Positions 2,083 through 29,198 of a stretch of 64,000 nt of DNA are shown here, in pieces. The translations under genes were made by a program, and so were the position numbers. The notes beneath the pieces are model-generated. The model saw only the letters and a list, made by a program, of their open reading frames with translations. It was not told where the DNA came from and made no database searches. Position 1 is the stretch's first letter. Every line of letters starts with the position of its first letter. Source of the DNA: a phage; sequence record PZ540767.1, one strand, 5' to 3'.

Positions 2083-3687
2083 ATGAGTAATATTTTTGAC
2101 GTTGAACAGCCAAAGAAAACGGTAATAGATTGGCTAAACGGGGTGTCTTATGCAGAAGATCCTACGTATAAGCCGAGTCTGTTTGCTTTGCAGTTCGTTA
2201 ACTTTATCAAGCTGGTCAATGGTGGTCAGGGCGAGGAGCATAAGACTCCGGTGCTTCACTACAAAATGCTGGACACTGTTGTATCGGGTGATCGGCGTAT
2301 TGCTAATATGGTACACCGTGGTGCTGCTAAAACTACTGTGATGGCTGAATACCTATTCTTGTACTTAGGTGTGTTTGGTAGTCTGCCTGAGTTCGGACGT
2401 ATTGAACTGGCCCTGTATGTTTCTGACTCCGTGGATAACGGTGTGAAGAACATGCGTAAGAACTTAGAATTCCGTTGGGAAAACTCAGAATTCCTGAAGC
2501 GAATGATCCCTAAAGCCAAGTTTACGGATATTCGTTGGGAGTTTACCAACCTGGAAGGTCAAACCACAGTAATCAAAGGCTATGGTGCTAAGACGGGTGT
2601 TCGTGGTACGAAAGAGATGGGTAAACGTCCTAAGCTGGCGATCCTTGATGACCTGGTATCGGATGAGGATGCACGTTCACCTACCATCATTGCTGCTATC
2701 GAAGATACGGTATACAAGGCAGTAGAGTACGCATTGCACCCATCCAATAACATGATGATCTGGTCTGGTACTCCCTTTAACGCAGGTGACCCCCTGTATA
2801 AAGCAGTAGAGTCTGGAGCATGGACTGTCAACGTCTACCCAGTGTGTGAGATGTTCCCCTGTGAAGAATCAGAGTTCAGGGGCAGCTGGCCTGATCGTTT
2901 TGATTATCGTTATGTCAAACAGCAGTATGAGAAAGCATTACTGGGTGGCAAGATTGCCATGTTTAACCAGGAACTGATGCTTAAGATCATGTCTGATGAA
3001 GATCGCCTGATCGCTGATGGGGATATTCGTTACTACTCTCGTGCTGCCCTGTTGAAGAACAAGAGCAACTACAACTTCTACATCACCACTGACTTTGCCA
3101 CCAGTGACAAGCAGTCTGCTGACTTCTCTGTCATCTCTGTGTGGGCACTGAACAATAATGGTGACTGGTTCTACGTGGACGGTATCTGTGAACGCCAGCA
3201 CATGGGGCAAAATATCAGAGACTTGTTCCGTCTGGTTTCTCAGTACAACCCGCAGGAAGTTGGTATTGAAGTTACTGGTCAGCAATCTGGTTTCATTCCA
3301 TGGATTATTGAACAGCAGATCGATAAGAACGTATTCTTTAATCTGGCTTCCAGTAACAACTCAAGCCAGCCTGGTATTCGTCCTACCACTGATAAGTTAC
3401 AACGCTTTAACGTAGTGGTGCCCTGGTTTAAAGCTGGGAAGATGTATTTCCCTTCAGAGCTGAGAACCAGTAAAGCAATGATCGAGATGATGGAAGAACT
3501 TCGCCTTGCTTCATTGGGTGGTTTCAAATCCAAACACGATGATGCCATCGATACCATTTCTCAGCTGGCACTGTTGAAAACCTTTAAGCCAGGAACAGCT
3601 GCACCTGTATACTACAACGAAGAGAAAGACGTGTGGTACGAGCCAGACGTTGAAGTAGATACTCGACTCAGTAGCTATCTGGTTTAA
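2083..3687 (+). CDS. terL: terminase large subunit
   Basis: 534 aa; P-loop-like HRGAAKTT and ILDDLVSDEDA ATPase motifs in N-terminal half, acidic nuclease-type residues in C-terminal half; GGAGAAAGG RBS. Confidence 0.85.
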   Translation: MSNIFDVEQPKKTVIDWLNGVSYAEDPTYKPSLFALQFVNFIKLVNGGQGEEHKTPVLHYKMLDTVVSGDRRIANMVHRGAAKTTVMAEYLFLYLGVFGSLPEFGRIELALYVSDSVDNGVKNMRKNLEFRWENSEFLKRMIPKAKFTDIRWEFTNLEGQTTVIKGYGAKTGVRGTKEMGKRPKLAILDDLVSDEDARSPTIIAAIEDTVYKAVEYALHPSNNMMIWSGTPFNAGDPLYKAVESGAWTVNVYPVCEMFPCEESEFRGSWPDRFDYRYVKQQYEKALLGGKIAMFNQELMLKIMSDEDRLIADGDIRYYSRAALLKNKSNYNFYITTDFATSDKQSADFSVISVWALNNNGDWFYVDGICERQHMGQNIRDLFRLVSQYNPQEVGIEVTGQQSGFIPWIIEQQIDKNVFFNLASSNNSSQPGIRPTTDKLQRFNVVVPWFKAGKMYFPSELRTSKAMIEMMEELRLASLGGFKSKHDDAIDTISQLALLKTFKPGTAAPVYYNEEKDVWYEPDVEVDTRLSSYLV

Positions 3688-5878: not shown

Positions 5879-5968
5879 TGGTGGAAGGTGAAGGATTCGA
5901 ACCTTCGGGCGCATCTCTGCACCTCCTGATTTCAAGTCAGGTACAATCGGCCTCTCTGACAACCTTCC
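5879..5968 (-). tRNA. tRNA-Ser (anticodon TGA), long variable arm
   Basis: Acceptor GGAAGGT/ACCTTCC, anticodon stem CCTGA/TCAGG with loop CTTGAAA, long variable arm, T-loop TTCGAAT, encoded CCA. Confidence 0.7.
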
Positions 5969-5974
5969 TAAATT

Positions 5975-6061
5975 TGGTGGGGGAAGATGGAGTTGAACCA
6001 CCCGAGCTTCTTAGGCAACAGATTTACAGTCTGTCCCGCTACCTCTACGGTCTATTCCCCC
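5975..6061 (-). tRNA. tRNA-Tyr (anticodon GTA), long variable arm
   Basis: Acceptor GGGGGAA/TTCCCCC, anticodon stem ACAGA/TCTGT with loop CTGTAAA, T-loop TTCAACT, encoded CCA. Confidence 0.6.
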
Positions 6062-12333: not shown

Positions 12334-12370
12334 TACTGGTTTATTAAATCAGTTTGCATTAAGCTTAAAG

Positions 12371-12394
12371 CCGGGGAATTCTCCCCGGTTTTTT
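12371..12394 (+). terminator. rho-independent terminator after capsid gene
   Basis: CCGGGGA-ATTC-TCCCCGG hairpin followed by TTTTTT. Confidence 0.8.
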
Positions 12395-12416
12395 ATTAAT
12401 TAAAGGTAGGTAAGAA

Positions 12417-12968: not shown

Positions 12969-14198
12969 ATGGCCGATATCACTATTGATCAAGTAGTAGC
13001 TAAAGATCTTCACCTTGAGGATCTGACTACTATTGACCTTCAGGGATCTGGCGTGTGGGATAAGATGCTGCGTAATATGCGTGTTCAACTCAACGATCAG
13101 TTTGAGAAGAATCGCATCACTGGCCCTACTTATGGGCAAGTATACGCAGCTACTTATGAGTCTACTCTTCAAGCTGCTATCACTTTACTTCTGGCTAAAG
13201 AACGTCAGGCATTAGAGATTAAGCAGCTTGAATTGCAGAACCAACTCACTCAAGCTCAGATTGATCAAATCCATGACCAGATGCAGAAGACGCCTTATGA
13301 GATCGAACAGATTAAGGCACAGACAGAGAATATCAAAACTGAGACTGCACAGACGCAGTACAATATTGATCATATTCTCCCACTTCAGGCTACTGGTTTA
13401 GAACTTGAAAACCAGACTCGTGAGTATAATCTCAACACTGTACTGCCTACTCAGGTAGCTCAGACCGAAGCTCAGACTTCACTGACTAAATCTCAGGAAG
13501 AACAGATCCGTGCTGAGATGCAGAAAGTACCATATGAGATTGAAGTACTTCAGTCCCAGGTGGATGAGTCTAAAATCAAGGTTCTGCAAGAGCAATATAA
13601 CCTCGATAACCTCATGCCTGCTCAGCTGGGTCAAATCAATGCTCAGACTGCTGGTGTGGTTAAAGAGACTGAACTTAAGGACTATCAACTGGTTAATCTG
13701 TACCCAGCACAGCTTGCAGGTACATTGGCCCAGACTGAGAATGTCCAACAAGATACTGCTCTCAAAGAGTATCAGGTACAGTTCCTCTACCCTGCTCAAT
13801 TAGCTCAGGCTAATAAGCAGCTTGAGTTAACTGAAGCTCAGATTGCTGTACAAAATAAGCAACTTGATCTACTTCAGGAACAGGTTAACCAGGCTAAAGC
13901 TCAGACTGATTACTATGCTCAGAAGGTTGTTACTGAGAAAGCTCAGACTGATGCTACAGTGATTGGGGATGGGTCAGTAATTAATACCCAGGTTCAGCTG
14001 ATGAATGCGCAGAAGGATGGGTATAAGCGTAATGCTGAACAGCAAGCTGCTCAGATTATGTCTAATACCTGGAATGTCCGTCGTCAAACTGATGAGGATA
14101 CTTCTGCAAACAGTACCAACTTACTGGATGATGCTACTGTGGGTAAAACCATTCAGACCTTGCTGTCTGGTGTAGGCGTAAATGTTAGCCCGTCCTAA
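12969..14198 (+). CDS. virion protein with internal tandem repeats (Q-rich, coiled-coil-like)
   Basis: 409 aa; repeated units such as YNLDNLMPAQLGQINAQT, LVNLYPAQLAGTLAQT, VQFLYPAQLAQANKQL. Confidence 0.55.
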   Translation: MADITIDQVVAKDLHLEDLTTIDLQGSGVWDKMLRNMRVQLNDQFEKNRITGPTYGQVYAATYESTLQAAITLLLAKERQALEIKQLELQNQLTQAQIDQIHDQMQKTPYEIEQIKAQTENIKTETAQTQYNIDHILPLQATGLELENQTREYNLNTVLPTQVAQTEAQTSLTKSQEEQIRAEMQKVPYEIEVLQSQVDESKIKVLQEQYNLDNLMPAQLGQINAQTAGVVKETELKDYQLVNLYPAQLAGTLAQTENVQQDTALKEYQVQFLYPAQLAQANKQLELTEAQIAVQNKQLDLLQEQVNQAKAQTDYYAQKVVTEKAQTDATVIGDGSVINTQVQLMNAQKDGYKRNAEQQAAQIMSNTWNVRRQTDEDTSANSTNLLDDATVGKTIQTLLSGVGVNVSPS

Positions 14199-14217
14199 TC
14201 GACTGGTATACTATATA

Positions 14218-14240
14218 GGGAGCCTTGTGCTCCCTTTTTT
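14218..14240 (+). terminator. rho-independent terminator
   Basis: GGGAGC-CTTGT-GCTCCC hairpin followed by TTTTTT. Confidence 0.7.
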
Positions 14241-14254
14241 ATTATGAGGTCACC

Positions 14255-17002
14255 ATGGGACTCTTTAGCGGAAAGAAGAAAACGTACCGAGACTTTAGCT
14301 ACTCTCGCCTAATTGAAGATGATTACCTGCCTGATGTTATGGGTCAGGCAGTTACTACGTATGTGCTGGATAAAGATAATACCAAATCACTTACTGATCT
14401 GATGCTGGAATATGGGTGGTCAGCTAACAATGTTAAGTGGGATGCTGCATATCGCTGGGCCAAAAAAGGTAAGTATTTTTATGGCCTCCCTACTACCACT
14501 ACTGTTACTGCTACTGACTTCACTGGTTCAGAGTCCTTAGAAGATGTTCTGCAATCACTCACAGGTCGTACAGATCTTACCTATGTATATAGTAAGTTTG
14601 TGCCTGGGAATTTCAGGCATGGTATGTGGCAGCAACTGATCTCAACTCAAAATTATAATGCCACTACTAATATCCTGGGATCTCTGACTTCATCTTTGGG
14701 CACTACGTGCTGGCTTCATAATGCTACTAACTATTTAACCAGTGAAACCAGGGAAGCTGTAGAAGACACCATGCTGGAGCATTGGGGCTTGTCACCTAAG
14801 AGTGGAGCTACCAATATTCGAAGCCAGGATTTGAATGCTGCTGATACTCCTGATGGGGTTAGTGCCACTGGTTCCAATTATGTCCGTGTGGAGTATGCGT
14901 GTAGCTTTGCTGGGGTAGAACGAATTAAGACCGTGGAAACCACTAAGGTAACCACTACAATTAAAACCCCAGATCCCAATGAGGAAGGTAGCTACACAGA
15001 AGAGACTTCATCTACTTCTTCAGATACCACTACTAACACGACTAACTGGAATGGGGTAACTCTACCTAATAACGTGATCAGTGCAGTGGATGTAGGTACA
15101 GGTACTTCAGAGGTTACTGAAAGTGATCCTGTCGATACGCAAACTACAACTGATGAAACTACTGGGGTAATTACAGAAGTCGTTACAGAGGTCACCAGAG
15201 TTATCACAACAAACACTGTTTCGATCAATGTTATTGCTTACTTCAATATGTCGTTTGGGATCTATGACTACAACCCTGATTCTGAAACCATTGACACTAC
15301 CACTGTGTTGGATGACCGAGATTCTGGGGATTATGATCCTACTGCTCCTCTGGTTCCAAGTGGGGAAGATACCGATGATTCCCCAGATTACTTCATGGTG
15401 TGTTATGAATATACCTCAGGGGGTACTCTCCATATTGGTTACTTTACCTATCAATATGGGTCTGGGAATTATCCTGCATTGGATGGGATCACAGGTACTG
15501 AGGTTGCCGACTTCGGACAACACTTCCCTCGTATGTATTTCCGTCTGGATGGTAAACGCCTCATTTCAGATGAGTACTCACAAACTGAAGGCTATAAGAC
15601 CAGTAAAAAGTTAGGTAATAAGCTGGACTTAGGTTGGTTAGATGTAGGAGAAGAAATTTATAATAGCTTGAGTTCTTTGGGCAAAATCAGAGATGTAATG
15701 ATGATTCTTATGGTTCCTGCCAATACTGAAAATGCTATTGAACAGGAATATCTCTATAACTATTTTCATACCCTCTGTATGTTACGTCCCCAGTACACTG
15801 AAAAAAACTGGACAATCTACTCAACTGAGTCTTCACAATCTGGTTCAGCTACAGTACCCCCATCAGATCTGGATACTTTTGATATGCGTTTAGGGGCTTT
15901 CATGGAGTCCTCTGACACATTTATTGCAACATCAAACCAGATGGACTGCCTGGGGTATGCTCGTATCACAGGCTCAATAGGTAACATTGGTGCCGTGGCT
16001 TCAGGGAGGGGTACAGGTAAGCTTCCCTTTAGATATGAATACAGACAGGATAATCAGCTTAAATACCGTTATGGTGTGAAAGATGTAGATTATCATTACT
16101 ACAGAGTTCAGGTATCCAGCACTCAGTATGATGAAGTCAGGGTGTATAACCTAAGCCACCAGGTTCGTGTAGGCGGTAAACAGGTTAACCGGAGTGGTTC
16201 CAGTGATGAACTCATGGTGCCTTTGGATCATGCTTTCAGAAAGCTGTTTAGTACTCATGAAAGAGAAACATTATATGCAAGGGCTGCTCAGATTTTAATC
16301 TGCACTGAGTATACAGTTAAGACTAAGTGGTATCAGACTAGCATTTTCAAGGCAATTACCGTTGTAATAGCTGTAGCTGTTTCTTGGTGGACTGGGGGAG
16401 CTTCTTTATCCATGATTAGTGTGTTAACTGCTGTAGCAACAACGGCAGCAACAATGATAGCTTTCTCACTATTGAGTAAGTATGTGTTCAGTAAACTGGG
16501 AAGTTGGGCTTCTATTCTGGCTACTGTAGTTGCTGTGGTCGCTGCTGTTTATGGGGGATATCTTGCTTATACAGGAACTACAGGCCCATATAGTTTAACT
16601 GCCCAAAATCTTATGCAGGCATCCAATGTTGCATTTAAAACTGCTGATGCTTCCCTAAAAGGACAGCAAATAGCTATGCAGCAAAAGTTTGGATCTCTTC
16701 AGAAAGAGTTAGAAGAAAAGCAGGAAGTACTACAGCAAGCTCAAGATGAGTTAAACCAGGGTTCTAATACTATTTCTGACTGGATATTCCTACAGGCTAC
16801 AAATGGCTATGTTAACTTAGGTGAAACACCTGATCAGATGATAACCCGTACTTTGAATACAAATATTGGAACACTGGCTTTACAGCTACCTGACGTATAC
16901 CTAAGTCAGGCATTGTCTTTACCTTCACCTGTAGAGATCATGCAGTTTATGCAACAAAAACTGTATACTGTTCCAGATGACGAACTCAATCCACTTACAT
17001 GA
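14255..17002 (+). CDS. large virion protein, candidate ejection/channel protein
   Basis: ATG at 14255 with GAGG RBS (ORF track begins at a TTG at 14225); Thr-rich low-complexity linker; long hydrophobic segments near C-terminus. Confidence 0.6.
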   Translation: MGLFSGKKKTYRDFSYSRLIEDDYLPDVMGQAVTTYVLDKDNTKSLTDLMLEYGWSANNVKWDAAYRWAKKGKYFYGLPTTTTVTATDFTGSESLEDVLQSLTGRTDLTYVYSKFVPGNFRHGMWQQLISTQNYNATTNILGSLTSSLGTTCWLHNATNYLTSETREAVEDTMLEHWGLSPKSGATNIRSQDLNAADTPDGVSATGSNYVRVEYACSFAGVERIKTVETTKVTTTIKTPDPNEEGSYTEETSSTSSDTTTNTTNWNGVTLPNNVISAVDVGTGTSEVTESDPVDTQTTTDETTGVITEVVTEVTRVITTNTVSINVIAYFNMSFGIYDYNPDSETIDTTTVLDDRDSGDYDPTAPLVPSGEDTDDSPDYFMVCYEYTSGGTLHIGYFTYQYGSGNYPALDGITGTEVADFGQHFPRMYFRLDGKRLISDEYSQTEGYKTSKKLGNKLDLGWLDVGEEIYNSLSSLGKIRDVMMILMVPANTENAIEQEYLYNYFHTLCMLRPQYTEKNWTIYSTESSQSGSATVPPSDLDTFDMRLGAFMESSDTFIATSNQMDCLGYARITGSIGNIGAVASGRGTGKLPFRYEYRQDNQLKYRYGVKDVDYHYYRVQVSSTQYDEVRVYNLSHQVRVGGKQVNRSGSSDELMVPLDHAFRKLFSTHERETLYARAAQILICTEYTVKTKWYQTSIFKAITVVIAVAVSWWTGGASLSMISVLTAVATTAATMIAFSLLSKYVFSKLGSWASILATVVAVVAAVYGGYLAYTGTTGPYSLTAQNLMQASNVAFKTADASLKGQQIAMQQKFGSLQKELEEKQEVLQQAQDELNQGSNTISDWIFLQATNGYVNLGETPDQMITRTLNTNIGTLALQLPDVYLSQALSLPSPVEIMQFMQQKLYTVPDDELNPLT

Positions 17003-17010
17003 GGTGACTA

Positions 17011-17436
17011 ATGGCTGGATTATCGATGTATCCAAGTCTGTGGGATCAGGGGTCTATGTCCCCATCTCTAGACTCTCTGAGTTCTGGTTTTACCAACTCA
17101 GCAAATACTTTTAACAATACGGCCCTTACTGGTTCAGGTGGTTCAGGTAGTTTCCTGGATAGTATCCTGGGAGGCTCTGGTGAAATGTCTGGTTTGCAGA
17201 TGGGCCAGCTTGGTCTGGGGGGTGTAACCAGTTTGCTTAATGGTTATCTTGGTTTCCAGAACCTGGGCCTTGCTAAGAAACAATACCAGTCTCAGCTTGA
17301 CCAGTTTAATAAGCAGTGGGATGCCAACAAGAAGTTAACCAATGCTTCTCTGGCAGACCGTCAGGCTGCTCGTGTTGCAAGTAACCCTAATGCATATCAG
17401 TCTGTTGATGACTATATGAAAAAATATGGGATCTAA
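17011..17436 (+). CDS. Gly/Ser-rich virion protein
   Basis: 141 aa; GAGG RBS; low-complexity G/S/L-rich composition. Confidence 0.5.
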   Translation: MAGLSMYPSLWDQGSMSPSLDSLSSGFTNSANTFNNTALTGSGGSGSFLDSILGGSGEMSGLQMGQLGLGGVTSLLNGYLGFQNLGLAKKQYQSQLDQFNKQWDANKKLTNASLADRQAARVASNPNAYQSVDDYMKKYGI

Positions 17437-17439
17437 ACC

Positions 17440-18516
17440 ATGGCTATTAGACTGCAACAAATTGCTGCACCTAACTTTGCTGGTTCTAACCAATTACTGC
17501 TGGCAGCAAACCAGCAGATTGGTAATGCTCTCCAGGGGCTACAAGGCACCCTGGGGCAGTATCGTGATGAAGTAGTACGCCGTAATACAGCTCAGGCTGT
17601 AGGACTGCTTACTGGGGCTACAGATGCTAATGATCTGGCCCAGCGTCAACAGCAAGTAGCACAGTTGGTTCAGCAAGGGGATATTGACCCCACTCGTGTA
17701 TCTGAAGTGGCAGCAACCATGCCAGATACTTTGTTAGGACGTCAGACTAATCAGCTAAAGCTGAACCAGATTCAGACTGCACAGCATGATGCACCATTAA
17801 TGGGTGCTTATATGCAAGCTGTTATGTCTGGGGATCAGAATGCAGCTAAAGGTATTTTGTCGCAATTCCAGGGGGATGCTTCAGATGCTCTGAAGTTTGC
17901 CTCTGATTGGGATATCAAAAACCAGCAGTTGAATCTTCAACGGTCTGAACTGGCACAGCGTCAAGCTCAGTTTGCTGCAACTCAGGCAGCAGCTAAGGCA
18001 AGAGCCGGGCAGAGTAATGCACTGCTTAAAGCCTTACCTGGTTTGCTTAACACAGGTAATGATATTCAGGGGAAGGCTGAAGCCAGGGATTTACAGGCTA
18101 ATGCTCAGGATGCTCAACAACGTGTTGCTATGGATCCTATAAACAACCCTAAGCTTAATGTTGCTGGGTGGGCTGATGCTAACAGTGATGTTTGGTTTAG
18201 GGGCTGGGGAAGACAGGCAGACTCTGACAGAATTTTTAATGCTCTGAAGGATCAACCAGCTTTTAAAGCACTTAATCCTCAACAGCAGATAAATATCCTA
18301 GACGGTGCCCTTGCTAATGAAAACTCCCGCGAAGATAAGGGAAATGTTTCTACTGTAAATGCTGCTACTAAGTATCTGACTGATGCAACGAAGCGCTTAA
18401 ATACCCTGAAGATTACTTCACGGCAAGCAGAGGATGCAAAAGATCAGCAATCTGTTATGCAAGAGCAAAGGGATCGTTTAAATAAGCTGCTTCTGCCCTT
18501 ACTTTTCCAACAGTAA
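17440..18516 (+). CDS. virion protein (Gln/Ala-rich)
   Basis: 358 aa; immediately upstream of the giant polymerase gene. Confidence 0.5.
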   Translation: MAIRLQQIAAPNFAGSNQLLLAANQQIGNALQGLQGTLGQYRDEVVRRNTAQAVGLLTGATDANDLAQRQQQVAQLVQQGDIDPTRVSEVAATMPDTLLGRQTNQLKLNQIQTAQHDAPLMGAYMQAVMSGDQNAAKGILSQFQGDASDALKFASDWDIKNQQLNLQRSELAQRQAQFAATQAAAKARAGQSNALLKALPGLLNTGNDIQGKAEARDLQANAQDAQQRVAMDPINNPKLNVAGWADANSDVWFRGWGRQADSDRIFNALKDQPAFKALNPQQQINILDGALANENSREDKGNVSTVNAATKYLTDATKRLNTLKITSRQAEDAKDQQSVMQEQRDRLNKLLLPLLFQQ

Positions 18517-18560
18517 TGAGGTTACAATCTGGGTACTCCACAATACTAAGGAATACTCAG

Positions 18561-21500
18561 ATGGCTGGTAACTCATCTCCTCTGGACAAGTTTCTTGTCC
18601 CACAACAGGTAACAGGTCAGGAAGCTGCTCAGGCACTTCCTGCACCTACCCAACCAACTATCGCCCAGCGTGTGAATGATGCTTCTACTCGTATCCTGAA
18701 TAACCTCACAGGACAGGGTATGTATCCTACAGAAGAAGGCGAGATTGCTCGACTCAAACGAATTAATAACGAACAGTCGGCATATGCTAAAGAAGTAGCT
18801 GCAAAAGATTCAGATTACGGTTGGTCTTCTACCAACTTCTTAGATCCTGAAACGTCTTCATTGACTGATCGTACAGCTTCTACCTTTGTTAACTATGGCA
18901 AAGCTCTTACTGATGCTGTTAATGGTCTTGCAGGCAAAACAGATAAGACTTTCAAAACACTGGGTAATGTGCTGGATCAGGCTTCTATTCCTAACGATGC
19001 ACTGGATGCTTATCGTCGTGTGCAAGCTGGTAAAGGCACCGAAGCTGATAATGCCCTGTTAGATCGTCAGGGTGCCTGGTGGACACAGCCTATTGAAGTA
19101 AATCAATATGGTGTACCAGAGATGGGTAACCAGACTCTTCGTCAACGTCTGGATGCTATCAACGAACGTCAGAAAACCCAAAACCAGAGTAGCTATGACA
19201 ATCTTGAGAAACTAGCTAACCCTGTTCAAATGCAGCAAGCTGCTGCTGATATTGAGAAATCAATTGAAGGTAAATCAGGACTTGATAAATTTGCTGCTGG
19301 TTTAGCTGCTATTGCTCGTAACCCTGGTGCTGCTGGTCAGACTATGGTGGAGTCTGCTCCATACATGGTTGGTGGTATCCCGGGTATGCTTGCTTCCTCT
19401 GCTATGCAGGGTGGCTCAGTATTGTCTCAGTATCTGGATACCCAACGTAAAGCTTCTGATGGTCAGATCCCTACAGCTAAAGATGTAGCTATCGGTACTG
19501 GTTTGGGTGTTGTTGATGGTGCTCTGAACTTTGCAGAAAGTATCATTAACCGTACTGCTATGCTTCCAGGATCTAAAGTATTACCTGCCGGAGTTGCTGA
19601 TCGTCTGGTGAACGCAGCACAGCGCATCGCACCACGCAGCTCTACGGCTGCTGCTGCTCTTGCGCGTGTGACTGCTCCTACCCTTGACCTTGCTAAGAAT
19701 GCCTTAACTGAAGGTCTGGTATCTGGTGCTCAAAACCAGATTGAGGAGAACTATGCGAAGGGTAAAAATGAATGGGATACCAAAGGTAATGATGTTGCTT
19801 TCTTCCAGGGGATTGCTGCTGCTACTGGTTTTGGTGCTCCTCGTGCTGCACTTAGTACTGCTGGTGAAGTAGCTAATACTGCTGCTCAGGCTATGCAGAA
19901 ACGTACTGAAGCACAAGATCCTGTAGGCCAAGCTGCTCGTAATACCACCCCAGAAGACTTAATGAATCCACAGTCAGAAGGATATAACCCAGCTGCTGCA
20001 ATTCGTCGTGCTGGTATGGAGTGGACTCGTAACACTGATGCTACTACTGATGAACAAAAGGCTGAGATTCAATCTCAGGCTCAGTCAGCTATGGATGCTG
20101 CACAGAATGATCACCAGAATAACCTGGATATGATTAACCAGAGGGCTACTGCTGAACGTACTCTTGCTGACGCTGGTAAGTTTATTCCTGCTATTCAGGA
20201 GAGACTGGATCAACTTAGTAATGATCCTAATGCAGATCCTGATGCTGTTAATCAGTTACAAACCATTCTGGCTCAACAGACTGAAGCTCGTGATGCTGCA
20301 CAGCAACAACTGGATGCTATGCCTTCTCAGGAGGAACTGGCACAGTCTGCTACCCGTTCTGCTGAAGTACTGGATCAGGCTAAGTCTGAGTTTGGTAAGT
20401 TCTCGTCAGCTACTGGTATGAATACCAATACAGCTAAACCAGAGAACCCAACAGCTTCTGACATTATCAGCCACCCAATGTCTTATACCAATGAAGACCT
20501 GCAAGAGTTTGTGCGTAATGCTCCTGCTAATGCTACCCCTGCTGAATTGGGTACGCTTCGTGCATTAGCTGATGCCAAAGTTGCAGAGAATGCTGTTAAG
20601 ACTGGTTCTAAGGTTAATAGTGAGATCTTCAAATCCACTTCTAATAACCTGTCACTGGGTGATTACCAACAGGGTATTAACACTGCTGTACAAGCTGGTG
20701 ATACTAACCGTATCCAATCCCTGATGACTGGTATCAACAACTTTGAAACTTCCCATACTGCTAAAGCAGATATTGCTCAACAGTACCTTAATGAAGCTAA
20801 ACAGAATGGTAAGTCTTACCAGATCCTGAAAACTTCTAATGGCTGGGAGTTAAATACTGGCAAACGTCTGGATGCTAAAGCACAGGCTAAGAATGGTGGC
20901 TTTACTATCCACAAAGGCTCTACTGGTCTGGTTAACAATATTGTTAATGAGGCCAAAGCTATTACAGCCACTCGTCAGTATATGGAAGGCATTGCTACCC
21001 CATCTACTAACCAGAATGTGACTGGCTCGACTGAGCAAGTAGCAAGCCCGGAGGCGCAGCCCGAGGGTGCAGCTACTGTAGCAGGAGAGACAGGAGCACA
21101 AGAACAACAAGCACAACCAACAATCAGCCCACTGACCACACGAGATATTCGTGCAATGGATCAGGCAACGCTGGAAAAGGTTATGGCTACTACTCAGCAG
21201 GCTATGTCTTCTGACACTAATCCTGTACTGGCTCGTAACCTGGATGCACTTGACCGTGAGTGGACTCGCCGTGCTGATGTGGCTACTAACCAGAATCGTG
21301 GTGTTGATGCTCCTCACCGTAAACTGGATGACTCCTTTAAGCCTAAAGCTCAGGAGAATGAGATCCAGCGTTCACAGGCTGAGACTACTACTCAAACTGA
21401 GCACACCCAGGCTGACATTGACAATGAGTCTACTGGTTCAGAATCTCAACAAACTGCCCCAGTTAACGTAGATGATGTTGTTACCAACACTGATACTTTG

Positions 21501-24500
21501 ACTGAGACTCAACAAGATAATGTAGCTCATGGTGCTCTGAGTATCTTTGGTAAAGTTGGTGAGTCCCTGAAAGCTCTGCGTGAGAAAGCTTTGGCTGAAC
21601 CTAAAGGCTTACAGAACCTTGTGCTTACTGGTTTCAACCAGCGAGTTCGTCCAGGTTTTGGTAGCCCACTGGTAGCAGTGAAAGACTTTATCAATACTCT
21701 GAAAACTGCTGTGGATACTGGTAGCTTCACTGAAGTTAACCGTTTCCTGAAACAGCATATCAGTGAGTCGAAAGCTGAAGGTGCTAAACAGAAAGCTCTG
21801 CTGAAACAGTTTGTGGAATTCCATGATCACATCACAGCTAACCTGGATAACATCATCCGTACTAAAGCCCCTGAGTATCGTTATCAGGACTTTGCTCAGT
21901 TTATCTTGGATGAGAATGGTAACTTTGACTCCAATACTAAAACTGGTATTGCAGCAGGTATCTTCTCCTGGCTTGGTGAGAATGGGGATAAGATGTTCCT
22001 GAACCAGAGTGAAGTAGCTAAAACTCTGCGTATCAAAGAAGATCAGTTAACTCCACAAGCCATGTCTCGTATGGCTGATATTGGCTATCGCCAAGACTTG
22101 ATCATGTCCCAACTTGGTCAACGTATTTATCAGGCTATGGGCTTTGCTAAACGTGCTGACGTTGATCCTAACCGTGCCAGCAAATTGCAGAATGCTCTGG
22201 GTGCTTATGCTCTCCATGCCATGTATTCCAATGGCTATATGGAACAGTCTTTAATGACTGCTAAAGAGTACTTCGATCTGCAAACCATGGGTCTGGATGA
22301 ACAATCAGCTAAAGAAGCTGCACAAGCTTTCCAGAATGACTTTGGTGTTTCCCCTAACGATGCCAAGCACAAGATTGTGTTTAGCCGTCCTGCACGTAAC
22401 TTTGATGCAGAAGGTAAACCAGTAGCTATTGAAGCTATCTCTGACATTAAGAATGGAATGAAAGATACCCGTTCTCTCATGTCTAAGCTGTTCGGTTATG
22501 ATCCTGCTGTACGTGAGGTTCTGACCACTAAGCCTGCTGGTTTCAAACAGAAAGTCTTCGGTAAAATGAATCGTGAAGTTCCTTCTGTTTTGGCTGCTCG
22601 TATCAGCAAAGCAATGCAATATGACTACACCATTGATCAGGGTGTAGTGAATGCTATGCGTACTATGTCCACTGTAGATAATGCTGCTCTGCAACATATC
22701 TTTGGTGTACGTACTGATGCTGATGTGCCCAATGAAATGGAGATCTTCAAGAAAGGACGTGAAGCCAAGAATGCTGATATCCAACGTTCTATGGAAATGG
22801 GTTTAGACTTTGCTAACCGTAGGGGTACTAACCCATTCTGGATGCCTATGGAAGTCTGGACTAACCAACGTATTGGTGATCTGGCTTCAGAGTTCAACCC
22901 ACAGGGTTCCAAAGTACACCGTGCTATGGGTGGCTTGAGTGCTCACCAGGTAGAGATTTCTGTAGCCCGTAATGCTCCTGTGCTGGACGCAGATGGTAAG
23001 CCTACTCAGTATGGCCTGTTCCTTGTATCCCTGGCTCAGGGTATGGAAGAAGCTCCTGTAATTGGTGCTGATGGTAAGAAACTGAAGTCTGTTGATAAGC
23101 AGACCTATGCTACCTTCTTACCTGCTTTCCAGAATTACCTGCGTAAACCAGAGAACATTAAGGCTGTACGTGCTATGCAGAAAGTGATCGCTGGTTCAGC
23201 TACTACTGCTGATACCAACGTCATTAAGAATGCTGTGGCTGAGTATGGTATGAATGGTCAGTCTTTTGCTGCCCTGCATAACCTGGCTCAGTATGCTACT
23301 GCTCTGGAATCTGGTAAGTCTTCTGTTAAGCTGCTGGCTCAAATGGAATCGGACGGTGTTACTAACGGCCCTATCCTGACTAACATCCTGAATGGCTCTG
23401 CTGACTTCGATCTACTGAAGCGTGGTGGTATTTATCGTGAAGGTGACAATATTACCAACATGCCTACTTATCGTGAGTTGGGTGGTCAGGATTACTACGA
23501 GCTGCTGGGTGATGCTATGCGTCAGCATTGGGCTGATTACAAAACCAATGCACCTGCTAGTCAGCAAGGTCAGATTCAGGCTCTGGAATATTTCTCTACT
23601 GGTTATGGTGCTCGTTCTAAGGCCAAGACTCTGGCTACCCCATTCAACTACTCTGCTGGTATTCCAGCACTGAAAGCTGCTATGGGCCGAGCTACTGTAG
23701 AGGATGTTTACTCTAAGATTGGTTCCCTGATCCCACTGGCTAAAAGCAATAACAAAGCAGACTTTGCCAAGGCTTATGCTGAGGTGAGTAAAAACCTTTC
23801 TGTACTCCTGGGTCAGAAAGTAAATCTGCCACGTACTGCTGATGGTCTGGTTAAGTTCAGCCTTAACCCGGCTCAAACTAAACGCATCATTGATGTGGAT
23901 TCTCAGACTCGCGGTGTTGCTACAGAGACTGCTGTTAATGAGGTTGCTGCTGACTTCATTGCATCTCGTGATGCTAATACCAGTCTGGTTAACACAACCT
24001 TTACCCTGGCTAACCTTCGCTACAATGCTGCTAAAGCTGCACTGCTGAAGAAGCGTATTGCTGAGGGTAAAATCCCTGTGGATGCTAAAGGTGCTCCATT
24101 GGAAGGACTCACTCAGGCAGATCTGGATAAGCTATCCCGCATGATTCCTAACATGCCTTCTGCAACTGGTGTTCTGTCTGAGAATACCAAAGCTTCTGGT
24201 TACCCAATGGCTAAGGTGGAGAAAGCTTTTACTGCTAAGTCTCCTGCCACCAGCATTGATATCTACTTCAAAGAAGCTGCTAACCCTAAACCAGCAATGG
24301 ATGCTAATGGGATGCTGCTGAGTCAAGGTCTGGTAGGTGGATACAAATCTACCCAGTCTACTGTGACTGAGACTAAGCTGACTAACCCTGGTGTTGCTAT
24401 GGGTGCTAACGTTACTCAGGGTACTGATGCTGCAATCAGCTCTGATGTAATCAGCAAGATCGAAAGCCAGAACGTGCATGATGCTAACATCCTGTCTCCT

Positions 24501-27500
24501 GACAATGTGCTGAAAGGTGCTCGTATCCAGAACAAAGCTATGTTTGATGCTGTGGTTTCTTATCATCCTCAACATCTGGCTGCTTCTGCACTGCTGACTG
24601 AAGTTCGTAGTCTGGCTGGTGCTAACCTGTCTACCAACGACAAGGTTGCAGCGAAGAAAGCTCTGGAAGCCATGAAGACTAAGATCCTGGGTAAAGACTT
24701 CAAGGGCAACATGAAAGCTGCTCTGAACACTATCCTTAACCAGGCATATGATCGTGACATTAAGAAACTGGAGACTCTCTCTGAAGTCTATGCTGTTAAC
24801 CAGTATGGTACTGAGGGGGGTGAATACCTGATCACTGATACTGATCGTAAGAAAATTGGTGATGAGATTGCACGTCTGAAACGTAGTCGTGCTGCTGGCT
24901 TACAACGTATCTCTGCTATGTTCTCTAAGGGTAATGCCCCAAAGGCTGAGGCCAACCAGTATCCTGATAAGATGAGACAATACCTGTATGAGGCTTCGGC
25001 CTCTACAGGCTCTGTGTCAGCTTCTGAGGTGATGGCTCGTACCAAAGGTAAGTTTGCTAACCCAGTATATAACGAACTCCACAATCTCATTTCTGGTTTG
25101 ATTCCAGCTGATGCTGTGGTGAACGTACTGGATGGGCAGACTATGCCTAAGAATGTTAAGGGGCAGTCACTGCCCCAGAACCGTGATGCCATTGCATGGT
25201 CTTATCAAGATAAAAACACTGCACAGGTTAACCTGTCACTCAGCAAAGAGGCTTCACCTGAAGTCTTGCTGCATGAACTGACTCACATTGCTCTGGGACG
25301 TGCAATTGCTACTGCTGATTCAAATCCAAAAGTAAAAGCTGTACTGGCCCGTACAGAGAAGCTAATGGGTAGAGTGACCAAGCTGGTTTCAGCTGATCCT
25401 CAATTGACTCAGAAGTTTGCCCCTGCTTTGGCTAACGTGGATGAATTTATCTCCTGGGGTATGACTAACCCAGAATTCCAACGTTACCTTGATACCATCA
25501 CTGGTGTGCCTGAAATCTCAGGTCGTAACCGTGGATGGTTGGGTACTGCCTTTAAACAGTTTGTGGATCAAATGTCAGGCATCTTTGCTGCTGTAACTGG
25601 TCGAGCTATTAATGCTCGGGTTACTACTGCTCTGGAAGCTCTGACCTTCGATACTGCACATCTGGTTCAGGCTATTAATCCTACTGCTATTGAGAGTCCT
25701 GTATCTTCTATCAGCCACCCTATGAGCAACACTAACAGTGCTGCTGATCAGGTAGCTAAGTTTAGCCATGTGGATATCTTTGATAACCTGGCTTCAACAG
25801 GTGGCAAGACTAACTCAGCACAGTTCACAGGTAACCTCCGTAATGTAATATCCACTGTGGCGGATCAGCTTTACGGTGCTTTAGGCTCCAGAGTCACCCA
25901 GAATGCCAATGAGAATTATACTCCTGGTCAAGTCTGGAATGAGGCTGTAGCCACTGGGAAAGCCCCTGTCAGCACCGAAGCACTGAGCAATGGGTTTGTA
26001 CTGACTAATCAGGAAGCCTTTGCTGTGGAGGCCATTGAGGCTGCTGTATCTGAATCTCTGGCTTCTGGTTTCACTTCACCAGTTAACCGGGAGATTCGTC
26101 GTACTTGGCAAGCTGCTAAACAATCCCTGAAACCAGAAGACTTCCATAATGGAAACTGGAATCAGGCAACTCAAGCAGAAAAACGAGCTGCTCAACAGAA
26201 ATGGAATTATCTGTTTGATGTAACGAATGACTCTGGTGAGTCCCAGCATCTGTCTCGTTTCGTTGCTATGGCTATTGGGCATGAAGACACCAGTAACTTA
26301 CTTGGCTTCCAGATGGAAGATGGTAAGGACTCTGGTAATACTGCCTTTGAACAGGCTACTGCTTACTTTAACCAGGCTGTTAATACAGTCTCTGGCATGT
26401 TGACCAATACCCATCAAGGACAAGCTGCAAATGCTCGTGCTCAAGCACTAGCTGAAAAGCTGATCCAGATTGAACTTAAGAACCGTGATACCACCATGAA
26501 TATTCTTACTGGTGGGATCGACAAAGTAGAGAATGCCTTAGATACGGCTGCTGCTAAGTCTAAACAGTTCCTGGGTAAAATCGTTAAAGCTACTGGTATT
26601 GATCAGTCCTCCAACAATGCTCTGAATGCTATGGGCAAAGTTGCAGGATTGGCTGCTCGTGATCAGCTGGGTAGCCTGAAAGAAACTATTAAAGAGTTCC
26701 GGGACTTTAATGCCCCTAGTACTCCAGAAGGTTCTCTGGCTTCCATTCTGACTGAAGCAACGAATGCTGATGATGTTCGTGCTCTGCATGAATCTCTGTT
26801 ACGTTCTACTAAACGTATTGAACAGGATCGTGCAACCTTAGCTGCTGTTACTGCTAAGAACTTAAATGAGATGTTTGATAACAATGGTCAAGACCTGACT
26901 AAAGAAGATCGTACAGCAATGACTTACTCACTGCTTCGTACTGATCTTCAGTCTGTGTTGCACATTGAAGGTATGAACCTGAATAACTTACATAAACTGG
27001 TTTCTAATACTGGTTATCGTAAGCAGCAGATCAATAACCTTGAGAAAACCATTAGCCAGTATGCTAACGGTAATGATAAGATCATTCGTGCCAAGGCTCT
27101 GGGATTCTGGATGGCTACTGGCAGAAATACCCTGGGACGTGATTTAGTTCTGAATGCAAAAGCTATTGCTACCGGAGCTGCTACTCACTATTCCACAGTA
27201 GGTATCGAACCGACTCTTGATGAAGTGAACGCCATTGATGCTCTGGCTTCAATGTACGCTCTAAGCTACACCAAGACCGAAAACCGTGTTCGCACTGCTG
27301 CTGTAATGGAACGTGAGCTTGCACGAGGTAAAGACAATGGCATTAAAATGCTGATGGCTACTTATGCGAACCTGATTGAGGATTCTGCTAATACGCTGTT
27401 TGCTGGTAACCAGTTGTCTCGCATTAAAGGCTATTTGCCTGAAGATACCAATCCTCATCATGACTTACGTGCGGTTGAGTCGGGGAGTGCAGATGAAGCA

Positions 27501-29198
27501 GCACTGGTGAACATGGGATACCAAAAAGTATCCCCACTGTCCCAGGACTCTTTGTCAAAACACTCTGGACGTGTACTGTATGTGACCAAAGAGAATGGGT
27601 ATCAACGAACCGTCTCTGGTACTTTCAGTTTAACTGGAAGCCAGCGTAAAGGTTCTTCCCTAAGTGGGGATCGTGCTGTTGCTGATCGTGTTCGAGCTGA
27701 CGAGTTAGAACAGTTAAGGCAAGCGTCCTATGCAGACGTGCGAGGGCGTGAAGCACTGTCCCACACTGCCTTTGATCCTACTCAGATCCAGGATAACCAT
27801 GTAGTGCCTGTATTAAGCACTGATGGTCATATCATGGACTTCCGTTACATGGCTACCCACAATACTCGTGACACGTTCCTTGATCGTAATAATGACTTTG
27901 CTGACCTTGTTGGTCGTCTGGCTGGTCAGAATATCGATAAGGGTGATGCCCCAAGCCAGAATGCTAAGATCCTGGAAGCTCTGCATGAAGACTCTAAGGC
28001 TAATATCCTGAAGAATCCTAATGCTTACTTTGAGATTGGGCCTAATGCACCTACTGAGCGAGGACGTGAGATCTGGGCAATGATGCCTTATGAAGCACGT
28101 ACTAAAGCTACTTCTCTGTGGGGTGCTGATCGTATGTATATTCGAAACGATCTGGTTAACCTTACTTTTGGCTTCCGTAAGTATTCACTGGCTAACATTT
28201 TTGATGTTGATCCAGAACAGCGTAATATTGCTCAGGGTGTTGCTGCTGGTTTACTTGAAGCTGCTTTTGGTGATAAGGCTAAAGCTTATGTAATTAAGGG
28301 TGAGCGTGGCATTCAGGAATTTATGCAGTCCTATAAGGACGTGATCGTTATTCGTAACCTGAAAACCCAGTTCAGTAATATTATGTCTAATACTGCTCTA
28401 CTGGCTGCTTATGGCGTTAACCCGGTACGTATGGTTAAAGATATCCGTACTGCTCTGGTTGCTGGGATTGACTACCGTAAACAGTACTCGCTGCTACTCA
28501 AGTATCAGCAACAGCAACGTGCTGGTATTGGTAACTTTGCTCAGATGGAGTCCCTGATCAATGAGACGCAGGATCGCTTGAATGCTAACCCTCTGGCTAA
28601 GTTTATTCAGGCAGGTATGATGCCTACCATCGTAGAAGACGTTCAGCCTGATGCTGATGGTTACACTTATGGTTCTAAGATCCGTAAGAAATTTAATGAG
28701 GTATCTGCCCATCTGCCAGCTTCTGCTGTAACAGCTGCTCGCTGGGCTGTGATTGATAAAGGTACTGCACCTCATAAATTCTTAAGTGATGCTGCTCAGT
28801 TCAGTGACTTTGCTGCTAAGTATGCTCTGTATAAGCACCTGACAGAACATGCCCGAGATCGCCTGAGTCATACTGAGGCTTTACAACGTGCATCTGATGC
28901 TTTTGTTAACTATGACATTCCAGCTACAGCTACTCGCCAATATCTGGATGATATGGGGATTACCATGTTTACGAAGTATCGTGTTCGTATCCAACGTGCA
29001 ATGTTCTACTTGATGGATAAACGTCCAGCATCTGTTATGGCACATATGGCAATTACAGGGCAGTTTACTCATGCACCTGATGCTATGGAGCCACTGTTTG
29101 CACGTAACTTAGGTAACCCATTCACACCTTCAGTATTGCAGGGTGGGAGTTTGTTGAATGTCCCAATGCCTTGGAACTTATTCAGAATGGCATACTAA
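18561..29198 (+). CDS. virion-packaged RNA polymerase (N4 vRNAP-like giant protein)
   Basis: Single uninterrupted ORF of about 3,550 aa; ATG at 18561 has an AAGGA RBS (first in-frame ATG at 18516 lacks one); followed by terminator. Confidence 0.85.
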   Translation: MAGNSSPLDKFLVPQQVTGQEAAQALPAPTQPTIAQRVNDASTRILNNLTGQGMYPTEEGEIARLKRINNEQSAYAKEVAAKDSDYGWSSTNFLDPETSSLTDRTASTFVNYGKALTDAVNGLAGKTDKTFKTLGNVLDQASIPNDALDAYRRVQAGKGTEADNALLDRQGAWWTQPIEVNQYGVPEMGNQTLRQRLDAINERQKTQNQSSYDNLEKLANPVQMQQAAADIEKSIEGKSGLDKFAAGLAAIARNPGAAGQTMVESAPYMVGGIPGMLASSAMQGGSVLSQYLDTQRKASDGQIPTAKDVAIGTGLGVVDGALNFAESIINRTAMLPGSKVLPAGVADRLVNAAQRIAPRSSTAAAALARVTAPTLDLAKNALTEGLVSGAQNQIEENYAKGKNEWDTKGNDVAFFQGIAAATGFGAPRAALSTAGEVANTAAQAMQKRTEAQDPVGQAARNTTPEDLMNPQSEGYNPAAAIRRAGMEWTRNTDATTDEQKAEIQSQAQSAMDAAQNDHQNNLDMINQRATAERTLADAGKFIPAIQERLDQLSNDPNADPDAVNQLQTILAQQTEARDAAQQQLDAMPSQEELAQSATRSAEVLDQAKSEFGKFSSATGMNTNTAKPENPTASDIISHPMSYTNEDLQEFVRNAPANATPAELGTLRALADAKVAENAVKTGSKVNSEIFKSTSNNLSLGDYQQGINTAVQAGDTNRIQSLMTGINNFETSHTAKADIAQQYLNEAKQNGKSYQILKTSNGWELNTGKRLDAKAQAKNGGFTIHKGSTGLVNNIVNEAKAITATRQYMEGIATPSTNQNVTGSTEQVASPEAQPEGAATVAGETGAQEQQAQPTISPLTTRDIRAMDQATLEKVMATTQQAMSSDTNPVLARNLDALDREWTRRADVATNQNRGVDAPHRKLDDSFKPKAQENEIQRSQAETTTQTEHTQADIDNESTGSESQQTAPVNVDDVVTNTDTLTETQQDNVAHGALSIFGKVGESLKALREKALAEPKGLQNLVLTGFNQRVRPGFGSPLVAVKDFINTLKTAVDTGSFTEVNRFLKQHISESKAEGAKQKALLKQFVEFHDHITANLDNIIRTKAPEYRYQDFAQFILDENGNFDSNTKTGIAAGIFSWLGENGDKMFLNQSEVAKTLRIKEDQLTPQAMSRMADIGYRQDLIMSQLGQRIYQAMGFAKRADVDPNRASKLQNALGAYALHAMYSNGYMEQSLMTAKEYFDLQTMGLDEQSAKEAAQAFQNDFGVSPNDAKHKIVFSRPARNFDAEGKPVAIEAISDIKNGMKDTRSLMSKLFGYDPAVREVLTTKPAGFKQKVFGKMNREVPSVLAARISKAMQYDYTIDQGVVNAMRTMSTVDNAALQHIFGVRTDADVPNEMEIFKKGREAKNADIQRSMEMGLDFANRRGTNPFWMPMEVWTNQRIGDLASEFNPQGSKVHRAMGGLSAHQVEISVARNAPVLDADGKPTQYGLFLVSLAQGMEEAPVIGADGKKLKSVDKQTYATFLPAFQNYLRKPENIKAVRAMQKVIAGSATTADTNVIKNAVAEYGMNGQSFAALHNLAQYATALESGKSSVKLLAQMESDGVTNGPILTNILNGSADFDLLKRGGIYREGDNITNMPTYRELGGQDYYELLGDAMRQHWADYKTNAPASQQGQIQALEYFSTGYGARSKAKTLATPFNYSAGIPALKAAMGRATVEDVYSKIGSLIPLAKSNNKADFAKAYAEVSKNLSVLLGQKVNLPRTADGLVKFSLNPAQTKRIIDVDSQTRGVATETAVNEVAADFIASRDANTSLVNTTFTLANLRYNAAKAALLKKRIAEGKIPVDAKGAPLEGLTQADLDKLSRMIPNMPSATGVLSENTKASGYPMAKVEKAFTAKSPATSIDIYFKEAANPKPAMDANGMLLSQGLVGGYKSTQSTVTETKLTNPGVAMGANVTQGTDAAISSDVISKIESQNVHDANILSPDNVLKGARIQNKAMFDAVVSYHPQHLAASALLTEVRSLAGANLSTNDKVAAKKALEAMKTKILGKDFKGNMKAALNTILNQAYDRDIKKLETLSEVYAVNQYGTEGGEYLITDTDRKKIGDEIARLKRSRAAGLQRISAMFSKGNAPKAEANQYPDKMRQYLYEASASTGSVSASEVMARTKGKFANPVYNELHNLISGLIPADAVVNVLDGQTMPKNVKGQSLPQNRDAIAWSYQDKNTAQVNLSLSKEASPEVLLHELTHIALGRAIATADSNPKVKAVLARTEKLMGRVTKLVSADPQLTQKFAPALANVDEFISWGMTNPEFQRYLDTITGVPEISGRNRGWLGTAFKQFVDQMSGIFAAVTGRAINARVTTALEALTFDTAHLVQAINPTAIESPVSSISHPMSNTNSAADQVAKFSHVDIFDNLASTGGKTNSAQFTGNLRNVISTVADQLYGALGSRVTQNANENYTPGQVWNEAVATGKAPVSTEALSNGFVLTNQEAFAVEAIEAAVSESLASGFTSPVNREIRRTWQAAKQSLKPEDFHNGNWNQATQAEKRAAQQKWNYLFDVTNDSGESQHLSRFVAMAIGHEDTSNLLGFQMEDGKDSGNTAFEQATAYFNQAVNTVSGMLTNTHQGQAANARAQALAEKLIQIELKNRDTTMNILTGGIDKVENALDTAAAKSKQFLGKIVKATGIDQSSNNALNAMGKVAGLAARDQLGSLKETIKEFRDFNAPSTPEGSLASILTEATNADDVRALHESLLRSTKRIEQDRATLAAVTAKNLNEMFDNNGQDLTKEDRTAMTYSLLRTDLQSVLHIEGMNLNNLHKLVSNTGYRKQQINNLEKTISQYANGNDKIIRAKALGFWMATGRNTLGRDLVLNAKAIATGAATHYSTVGIEPTLDEVNAIDALASMYALSYTKTENRVRTAAVMERELARGKDNGIKMLMATYANLIEDSANTLFAGNQLSRIKGYLPEDTNPHHDLRAVESGSADEAALVNMGYQKVSPLSQDSLSKHSGRVLYVTKENGYQRTVSGTFSLTGSQRKGSSLSGDRAVADRVRADELEQLRQASYADVRGREALSHTAFDPTQIQDNHVVPVLSTDGHIMDFRYMATHNTRDTFLDRNNDFADLVGRLAGQNIDKGDAPSQNAKILEALHEDSKANILKNPNAYFEIGPNAPTERGREIWAMMPYEARTKATSLWGADRMYIRNDLVNLTFGFRKYSLANIFDVDPEQRNIAQGVAAGLLEAAFGDKAKAYVIKGERGIQEFMQSYKDVIVIRNLKTQFSNIMSNTALLAAYGVNPVRMVKDIRTALVAGIDYRKQYSLLLKYQQQQRAGIGNFAQMESLINETQDRLNANPLAKFIQAGMMPTIVEDVQPDADGYTYGSKIRKKFNEVSAHLPASAVTAARWAVIDKGTAPHKFLSDAAQFSDFAAKYALYKHLTEHARDRLSHTEALQRASDAFVNYDIPATATRQYLDDMGITMFTKYRVRIQRAMFYLMDKRPASVMAHMAITGQFTHAPDAMEPLFARNLGNPFTPSVLQGGSLLNVPMPWNLFRMAY

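Follow-up and report, generated by a model that had tools for sequence, protein, structure and literature searches.

Positions 14255-17002 of an N4-like phage genome probably encode a tail plug of the N4 gp53/DEV gp74 family

In the podophages N4 and DEV the tail's distal end is closed by a plug protein, and a candidate gene for such a plug lies at positions 14255-17002 of a 64,000-nucleotide stretch of phage DNA (sequence record PZ540767.1), which we refer to as the window. In phage N4 the tail tube consists of 12 copies of gp54 and is closed by a single gp53 (Bellis et al., Nat Commun 2026, PMC13434306). N4 gp53 is a monomer that lies mostly outside the tube and combines a globular core with a beta-feather and a hydrophobic knot; the six short helices of the knot (residues 29-56 and 670-716) cork the tube base. 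The published model spans residues 9-724, with the remaining residues lost in the lumen of the tail. A single sheath protomer (gp65 D9-D10) retains the plug within a 12:6:1 symmetry mismatch, and the plug is seen on full and emptied particles alike. The ejection proteins of N4 are gp50-52, with channel activity measured for gp51 and gp52 and not for gp53; the authors label gp53 and gp54 'ejection-related'. The abstract and main text of that paper contradict each other on the outer-membrane versus periplasmic roles of gp51 and gp52, and neither version is used here.

Phage DEV has a homologous plug, gp74, which closes a gp75 tube at 12:1 and is gripped laterally by the gp56-55-54 receptor-binding fibre; delta-56 virions lose their DNA (mBio 2026, PMC12892993). 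According to the N4 authors, DEV gp74 is without a beta-feather (PMC13434306). Members of the family occur in virions: liquid chromatography-mass spectrometry detected N4 gp53, mass spectrometry detected Moo19 gp70, and virion proteomics found the product of the plug gene, which is conserved in DEV and LIT1. Both the plug family and its role are already published (2025-2026).

The reading frame at 14255-17002 probably encodes a Schitoviridae tail plug of the N4 gp53/DEV gp74 family, an assignment to which we give a probability of roughly 85%. The best phmmer match among PDB sequences is 9ze4_M, the 'N4 gp53-like protein' of the DEV asymmetric tail gating complex (E = 2e-42), with both ends aligned, and the next is N4 Gp53 (9yft_FA, E = 3.9e-5). 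When a 67-sequence profile is aligned with N4 gp53 by hhalign, the match has a probability of 99.9% (E = 2e-33) and covers 772 columns, query positions 10-891 on 1-882. The protein also matches phrog_2220 (E = 4.5e-157, positions 1-848 of 850), a PHROGs family without an assigned function, and nothing in Pfam exceeds threshold. A Pfam TRIM_CC match (22 bits against a cutoff of 30) was set aside as a generic coiled-coil signal. By tblastn, relatives are present in 211 phage records, some of which name the protein 'N4 gp53-like protein'.

Structure prediction agrees with these matches. Foldseek gives a single PDB match below E = 1e-3 (E = 5.1e-30, TM-score 0.56 normalised to the target), and the prediction has the core fold of the solved plug. 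PDB matches by sequence and by fold are plugs only. Thirteen significant fold matches in BFVD comprise proteins of Acinetobacter XC38, Vibrio VCO139, Shigella pSb-1, Escherichia Bp4 and uncultured podoviruses, and three of the thirteen are nameless. The initial annotation had proposed a comparison with the N4 ejection proteins; no similarity was detected between the plug protein and any of N4 gp50, gp51 and gp52 or their LIT1 equivalents.

The position of the gene points the same way. By sequence comparison the source phage is an N4-like podophage (Schitoviridae) whose nearest relatives are Klebsiella phages. Between 1.2 and 29.2 kb the + strand of the window encodes homologues of N4 gp69, gp68, gp67, gp59 (portal), gp57, gp56 (major capsid) and gp55-gp52, and the run ends with a gene in the gp51 slot and a 3560-residue virion RNA polymerase. 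This order, gp69-68-67...59-57-56-55-54-(53)-52-51 slot-50, is colinear with N4. The local succession of major capsid protein, gp55-like, gp54-like, plug, gp52-like, gp51 slot and virion RNA polymerase is identical in N4, LIT1 and Nepra. Every sequence, fold and position test that could be run agrees with membership in the N4 gp53/DEV gp74 family. Homology, gene order, core fold, the secondary structure in prediction and the conserved set of three apolar helices are what the analysis itself shows, and copy number, location, cork arrangement and displacement are carried over from N4 and DEV. The reading frame noted in the initial annotation is real and its coordinates are correct, and the assignment of the product to the genome-delivery apparatus holds through its homology to the plugs.

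Several observations weigh against the assignment. The records of relatives label the protein 'hypothetical protein'; presence in virions is documented for the family (N4, Moo19 and the DEV/LIT1 type), and in this clade the product is a putative virion protein. Mass spectrometry of virions of Pectobacterium phage CB1, whose plug is about 55% identical to this one as judged from its relatives Nepra and A38, listed CB1_77, 78, 79 and 81 and not the protein in the plug slot. This omission is consistent with one hydrophobic copy per particle, and it provides no positive evidence. The confidence of the AlphaFold2 model, given as the predicted local distance difference test (pLDDT), falls below 50 from residue 714 on, as expected if that part folds solely inside the tube. 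The Foldseek libraries had a cut-off of April 2026 and do not hold N4 9YFT, so the comparison with N4 is by sequence profile only. Finally, tblastn finds no homologue of N4 gp64/65/66 or LIT1 ORF54-56 in the 64-kb window, which may not span the whole genome (close relatives are about 74-77 kb). In the search with N4 gp64/65/66 and LIT1 ORF52-56, the sole match is to the N-terminus of LIT1 ORF53, a collar or fibre adaptor, at 40604-40945.

Three elements of the protein are conserved across the family: the N-terminal motif, the apolar block and the C-terminal motif (Table 1). Within the N-terminal motif, M1, G2, F4 and K7 are invariant in 67 sequences. The motif is common to N4 gp53 and DEV gp74, and it is missing from the N4 model, which begins at residue 9. 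The helices that follow align in register with the first knot segment of N4 and would form the first half of a hydrophobic knot.

Apolar segments were scored with Kyte-Doolittle 19-residue windows (KD19), with a peak cut-off of 1.6. Three peaks of at least 1.6 occur, at residues 703-721, 721-739 and 753-771 (KD19 1.64-1.96), and AlphaFold2 assigns a helix to each of them. Where three or four hydrophobic helices near residue 700 had been noted, three are thus confirmed by both methods and a fourth is not. The buried beta-strands that would have spoken against this description do not appear, since structure prediction gives helices for the hydrophobic segments. Over 77 residues the block has a mean Kyte-Doolittle value of 1.42 (0.43 +/- 0.16 in 3000 shuffles, z = 6.3, reached by none) and contains three charged residues only. 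The hydrophobic moments of the first, second and third helices are 0.83, 0.14 and 0.34, and 49% of the block is Ala, Gly, Ser or Thr with many small-xxx-small spacings.

The residues K691-W692-Y693-Q694...F698-K699 that open this block align with the N4 sequence KKWYQSGIFK (residues 659-669). This register places the N4 knot segment 670-716 at residues ~700-735 here, covering the first apolar helix and the greater part of the second; N4 holds about 17 additional residues within the stretch. The sequence elements of the knot are present and aligned, and their packing into a cork is putative, with pLDDT below 50 after residue 714. The third apolar helix (751-773), the long amphipathic helix (783-834) and the C-terminal motif (855-891) correspond to the part of N4 gp53 that is lost in the lumen. 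The C-terminal motif is common to this phage, Nepra, LIT1 and N4 even though identity in the region is just 27% with LIT1 or N4.

A Thr/Ser/Asp-rich low-complexity linker near residue 250 had been described in the initial annotation. The Thr bias is real: residues 206-335 are 24% Thr compared with 12% for the whole protein, and as many as 15 Thr fall within 40 residues, a density that 0.65% of 2000 shuffles attain. The Asp-rich part is separate and occupies the adjacent stretch, residues 336-378. The description as a linker is not supported for the Thr-rich part, which is predicted to be an ordered, long beta-sheet with pLDDT 79-91. Its strands span residues 209-239, 247-264, 274-290, 294-299 and 306-332 (31, 18, 17, 6 and 27 residues). 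The two that lie wholly in the middle of the module are polar on both faces (mean Kyte-Doolittle values -1.7/-1.3 and -2.6/-0.7). This polarity fits a sheet exposed to solvent, a setting that favours Thr, and speaks against a hairpin that inserts into membranes. A toxin-like membrane beta-hairpin was considered and rejected, as there is no hydrophobic face and the Foldseek matches to toxin pores have E-values of 0.016-0.2 and probabilities of at most 0.10. The acidic loop, from about residue 340 to 378, is probably disordered and is the only such part of the Thr/Asp-rich region in the prediction.

By alignment, the Thr-rich module is an insertion at the site of the N4 feather, where N4 gp53 has its own Thr-rich stretch (residues 271-340), and it is predicted to be beta-feather-like. 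Its length is 123-130 residues in 58 close homologues, 73-100 in intermediates and 29-40 in DEV-like proteins of 742-757 residues; the acidic loop is shrunk to 0-16 residues in the featherless and intermediate relatives. A hidden Markov model of the feather and loop of this clade does not detect the N4 gp53 feather (-1.5 bits after an 18-bit bias correction), so shared ancestry of the two feathers is unproven.

Compared in full, the protein resembles N4 gp53 in its profile homology over the entire length, in its synteny, in its size (915 residues here, 885 in N4) and in having the WY motif directly before the apolar helices. It differs in that pairwise similarity is seen over residues 571-833 only (24% identity) and in that the hydrophobic block of N4 is more hydrophobic (KD19 up to 2.68) as well as longer. 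DEV gp74 and its LIT1 counterpart share the slot after the tube gene, the MGLFS N-terminus, a (K/P)WY motif with apolar helices behind it, and the motif at the C-terminus; residues 379-690 here give the top-scoring stretch of the DEV gp74 match. DEV gp74 is shorter (740 residues), however, and is without residues ~190-374 of this protein, which are the Thr-rich sheet and the acidic loop. The DEV plug is held by the gp56-55-54 fibre and the N4 plug is retained by a gp64/gp65 sheath, whereas homologues of neither holder are found in the 64-kb window.

If the arrangement seen in N4 and DEV carries over, one plug copy per virion would close the dodecameric tail tube at its distal mouth; the tube is probably built from the product of 12969-14198. 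Residues 1-205 and 379-690 would, by analogy, make up a beta-rich external body that is gripped sideways by a receptor-binding tail protein. Helices within residues 28-55 could pack with the first hydrophobic helices (residues ~696-744) as a cork in the tube opening, and residues ~751-915, with the third apolar helix, the amphipathic helix and the C-terminal motif, would extend up the tube lumen. The Thr-rich sheet would project from the core into solvent at the beta-feather site, next to a floppy acidic loop. Receptor binding would then displace the plug and open the tube as the exit for the gp52-like and gp51-slot proteins, the giant RNA polymerase and the DNA. In such an arrangement the most likely role of the hydrophobic helices is that of the cork and not of a DNA channel.

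The same helices suggested to the initial annotation an ejection protein, which would leave the virion and insert its three transmembrane helices into the host envelope as a conduit for DNA and polymerase. Their uniform apolarity and small-residue content are compatible with such a role, and conservation of the hydrophobic block extends across the representatives sampled from the family. Moreover, in the tube-plug-ejection cassette at 12969-29198 the plug alone has KD19 peaks above 1.6 (the maxima are 0.83 for the gp52-like protein, 0.59 for the gp51-slot protein and 1.17 for the virion RNA polymerase). The N4 cassette is alike (gp51 0.65, gp52 0.9), except that its virion RNA polymerase has one internal peak of 1.82. 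As the sole helices of transmembrane grade in the cassette, they made the idea reasonable, and they leave room for a less likely reading in which the C-terminus in the lumen inserts into a membrane after release of the plug. They qualify as potential membrane-active segments, a feature that by itself does not define ejection proteins; N4 gp51 and gp52 make pores (PMC13434306) and both are without such segments by KD19. The solved homologues are single-copy proteins outside the tail tip and not in the capsid, and N4 particles still bear the plug after DNA release. The three helices of one chain cannot line the ~35 Å channel described for N4, the measured channel activity belongs to gp51 and gp52, and the plug resembles none of gp50-52. 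We therefore regard the conduit as very unlikely.

A combination of the two roles is somewhat easier to accommodate but still quite unlikely. Here the protein acts first as a plug, and upon displacement its luminal C-terminal ~165 residues enter the outer membrane, where they tether the tail tip or seed a gp52-type pore. In N4 the C-terminal part is unmodelled in the lumen beside density that may be gp52, which would place it to exit first. The retention of the C-terminal motif across N4, LIT1, Nepra and this phage at 27% identity suggests a specific function beyond space-filling, the apolar helices have very low amphipathicity, and the arrangement would recall the hydrophobic end found in tape-measure proteins of siphophages. 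The N4 authors, however, read the hydrophobic region as a self-packed knot that also permits rebinding of the plug (PMC13434306). Since empty particles show plug density, the knot seems to go back into the tube, at least in vitro. The helices might instead act in the infected cell, where they would anchor newly made plug in the inner membrane, and the plug would nucleate tube assembly there before being extracted into the particle. A Hessa-type sum of about 1.0-2.4 kcal/mol per 19 residues fits this proposal, and a cytoplasmic protein with three such helices must somehow remain soluble. Its N-terminus, however, has no signal sequence or membrane-targeting feature and carries a conserved polar motif instead, and the packing of the first helices inside the tube of the mature N4 virion already accounts for their apolarity; we consider this role extremely improbable.

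A plug of this type also differs from other proteins of podophage delivery systems. The tail needles P22 gp26 and that of Sf6 are trimeric coiled-coil fibres that are expelled. They are like the plug in sealing the distal channel of the tail until receptor contact, a comparison made in the DEV papers, but needle-type folds are absent from the fold-search matches and the needles have no sequence likeness to the plug. Podophage ejection proteins (T7 gp14/15/16, N4 gp50/51/52 and DEV gp71/72/73) are encoded beside the plug and serve the same delivery step. They are stored in several copies within the head or portal region, are no longer found on emptied particles and make pores, whereas the plug homologues are single-copy, external and retained, and have no sequence similarity to them. 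Two earlier annotations appear to concern the same family. The genome paper of Klebsiella phage KP8 (2019) described ORF71, in the structural gene cluster, as a hypothetical protein with four predicted transmembrane domains and suggested that it is structural, without giving a function; its position and description indicate that it is probably a gp53 homologue. Proteins of the family in Vibrio phages carry the annotation 'TMhelix containing protein', also without a function.

The family is broad. An exhaustive profile search matches 3023 clusters at 50% identity, and we examined 148 newly retrieved representatives from among the best 150 profile matches. Nearly all of these distant representatives (145 of 148) have 722-800 residues and are of the featherless form, and the Thr-rich beta-sheet is an optional insertion found in a minority of members. 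The MGLFS start is present in 71 of the 148. KD19 peaks of at least 1.6 number three in 116 representatives, four in 21 and two in 9, at a median position of 0.77 of the protein length. The hydrophobic block is exactly 85 residues long across the sampled close homologues. Since the sampled representatives retain three to four apolar helices, the hydrophobic knot of N4 looks widespread in the family.

Among close relatives the plug is a mosaic. The nearest deposited genome is that of Klebsiella phage pKP-BM327-1.2 (genus Efbeekayvirus), whose plug is 85% identical and labelled 'hypothetical protein', and a 97%-identical plug protein is present in a public assembly. The close homologue P0004 is 98% identical over residues 1-205 and 96-98% over residues 206-378, yet 66% over residues 379-690, the most exchangeable part of the protein among close relatives. 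In ten Klebsiella phage records the DNA match is limited to the last third of the gene (nucleotides 1837-2748, 82-84% identity). The external core appears to be swapped while the luminal part is retained.

The start of the gene is well placed, with a GAGG Shine-Dalgarno sequence ahead of an ATG that yields the family N-terminus. A TTG start at 14225 was rejected because it sits within a terminator hairpin while the ATG at 14255 gives the family-wide MGLFS. This terminator-like hairpin, between the tail-tube and plug genes, has a predicted RNA fold energy of -17.2 kcal/mol (z = -2.0). An equivalent hairpin with another stem sequence occupies the same place in LIT1 (GGGGAAC/GTTCCCC) and Nepra (GGGAGC/GCTCCC); N4 has no such hairpin before its plug gene, where the gap is 3 nucleotides. 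The hairpin may be a read-through attenuator that sets the ratio of a 12-copy tube to a 1-copy plug. A stronger terminator-like hairpin (12367-12400, an 11-bp stem with 6 GC pairs and a T-run) lies directly 3' of the major capsid gene, which fits a step-down of expression past the most abundant virion protein.

Table 1. Coordinates of the probable plug gene, its parts and associated features (positions in the window except where a handle is given; pLDDT from AlphaFold2)
Feature	Coordinates	Strand	Basis or detail
Probable tail plug gene, 915 residues, orthologue of N4 gp53/DEV gp74	14255..17002	+	
Family-wide N-terminal motif MGLFSxKKKT	14255..14284	+	here MGLFSGKKKT
N-terminal helices, residues 28-55 (predicted 28-38 and 46-55)	14336..14419	+	AlphaFold2; hhalign register with N4 29-56
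Thr-rich module, residues 206-335, predicted beta-feather-like sheet	14870..15259	+	AlphaFold2
Acidic loop, residues 336-378	15260..15388	+	11 Asp in 40 residues; block pLDDT 44-63
Beta-rich core, C-terminal half, residues 379-690	15389..16324	+	pLDDT mostly 80-95
Hydrophobic block, residues 691-775: KWYQTSIFK motif, then three apolar helices (696-713, 721-744, 751-773)	16325..16579	+	
Long amphipathic coiled-coil-like helix, residues 783-834	16601..16756	+	AlphaFold2, low confidence; hydrophobic moment 1.01; sub-threshold TRIM_CC
C-terminal motif LGExPDxxxxRTLxTxNIG...LxLPS, residues 855-891	16817..16927	+	G856, E857, R865, T866, N870, G872, Y882, P890 (near-)invariant
Shine-Dalgarno sequence GAGG, spacer of 5 nucleotides to ATG	14246..14249	+	read from sequence
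Intrinsic-terminator-like hairpin AGGGAGC-CTTGT-GCTCCCT with T-run, between tail-tube and plug genes	14217..14244	+	terminator scan
Equivalent hairpins in LIT1 and Nepra	L003 ~5963-5993; L004 ~2963-2990		
Tail-tube gene, gp54-like, 409 residues	12969..14198	+	phmmer: N4 gp54 E 2.5e-19, LIT1 gp54-like E 2e-37; phrog_2050
gp52-like ejection protein gene, 141 residues	17011..17436	+	phmmer: LIT1 gp52-like E 1.1e-14, N4 gp52 E 1.2e-6
gp51-slot gene, 358 residues	17440..18516	+	placed by position
Virion RNA polymerase gene, 3560 residues	18516..29198	+	BLASTP against N4 gp50, E 3e-38

Several neighbouring genes depart from N4. The tail-tube protein is enlarged (299 residues in N4, 293 in LIT1 and 262 in Nepra), and the additional ~110-150 residues are a central helical expansion rich in Gln and Glu. 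The tail tube of this phage may consequently be longer. The gp51-slot protein is homologous to the Nepra protein at the equivalent slot, and its likeness to N4 gp51 (644 residues) is confined to the first ~40 residues (E = 0.004). In phage CB1 the protein of this slot (CB1_78) was detected in virions and described as unrelated to gp51. A tail-fibre module is located at 40484-44403 (+), 44450-44950, 45116-45658 and 45735-46178, amid replication genes on the opposite strand. It encodes proteins of 275 residues, 745 residues (a tail fibre) and 262 residues, with an endolysin, an Rz-like spanin and a Hoc-like decoration protein following it. The N-terminus of the 275-residue protein resembles that of the LIT1 ORF53 tail protein, which probably corresponds to the collar domain of the DEV long fibre.

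One unlikely extension of the plug's function would have broader consequences. If the freed C-terminal ~165 residues insert in the outer membrane and mark or prime the site of a gp52-type pore, then the plug would be the first membrane-active component of the Schitoviridae ejection pathway, and this dual role would explain why the plug alone in the cassette of this phage has helices of transmembrane grade. The identification as a tail plug has a more immediate use, in that the 'hypothetical protein' in several of the examined records of Klebsiella, Kosakonia and Pectobacterium phages can be renamed tail plug with domain boundaries. For Klebsiella phage therapy, the variable and recombining parts of the plug are its external core and feather, which may co-vary with the receptor-binding proteins.

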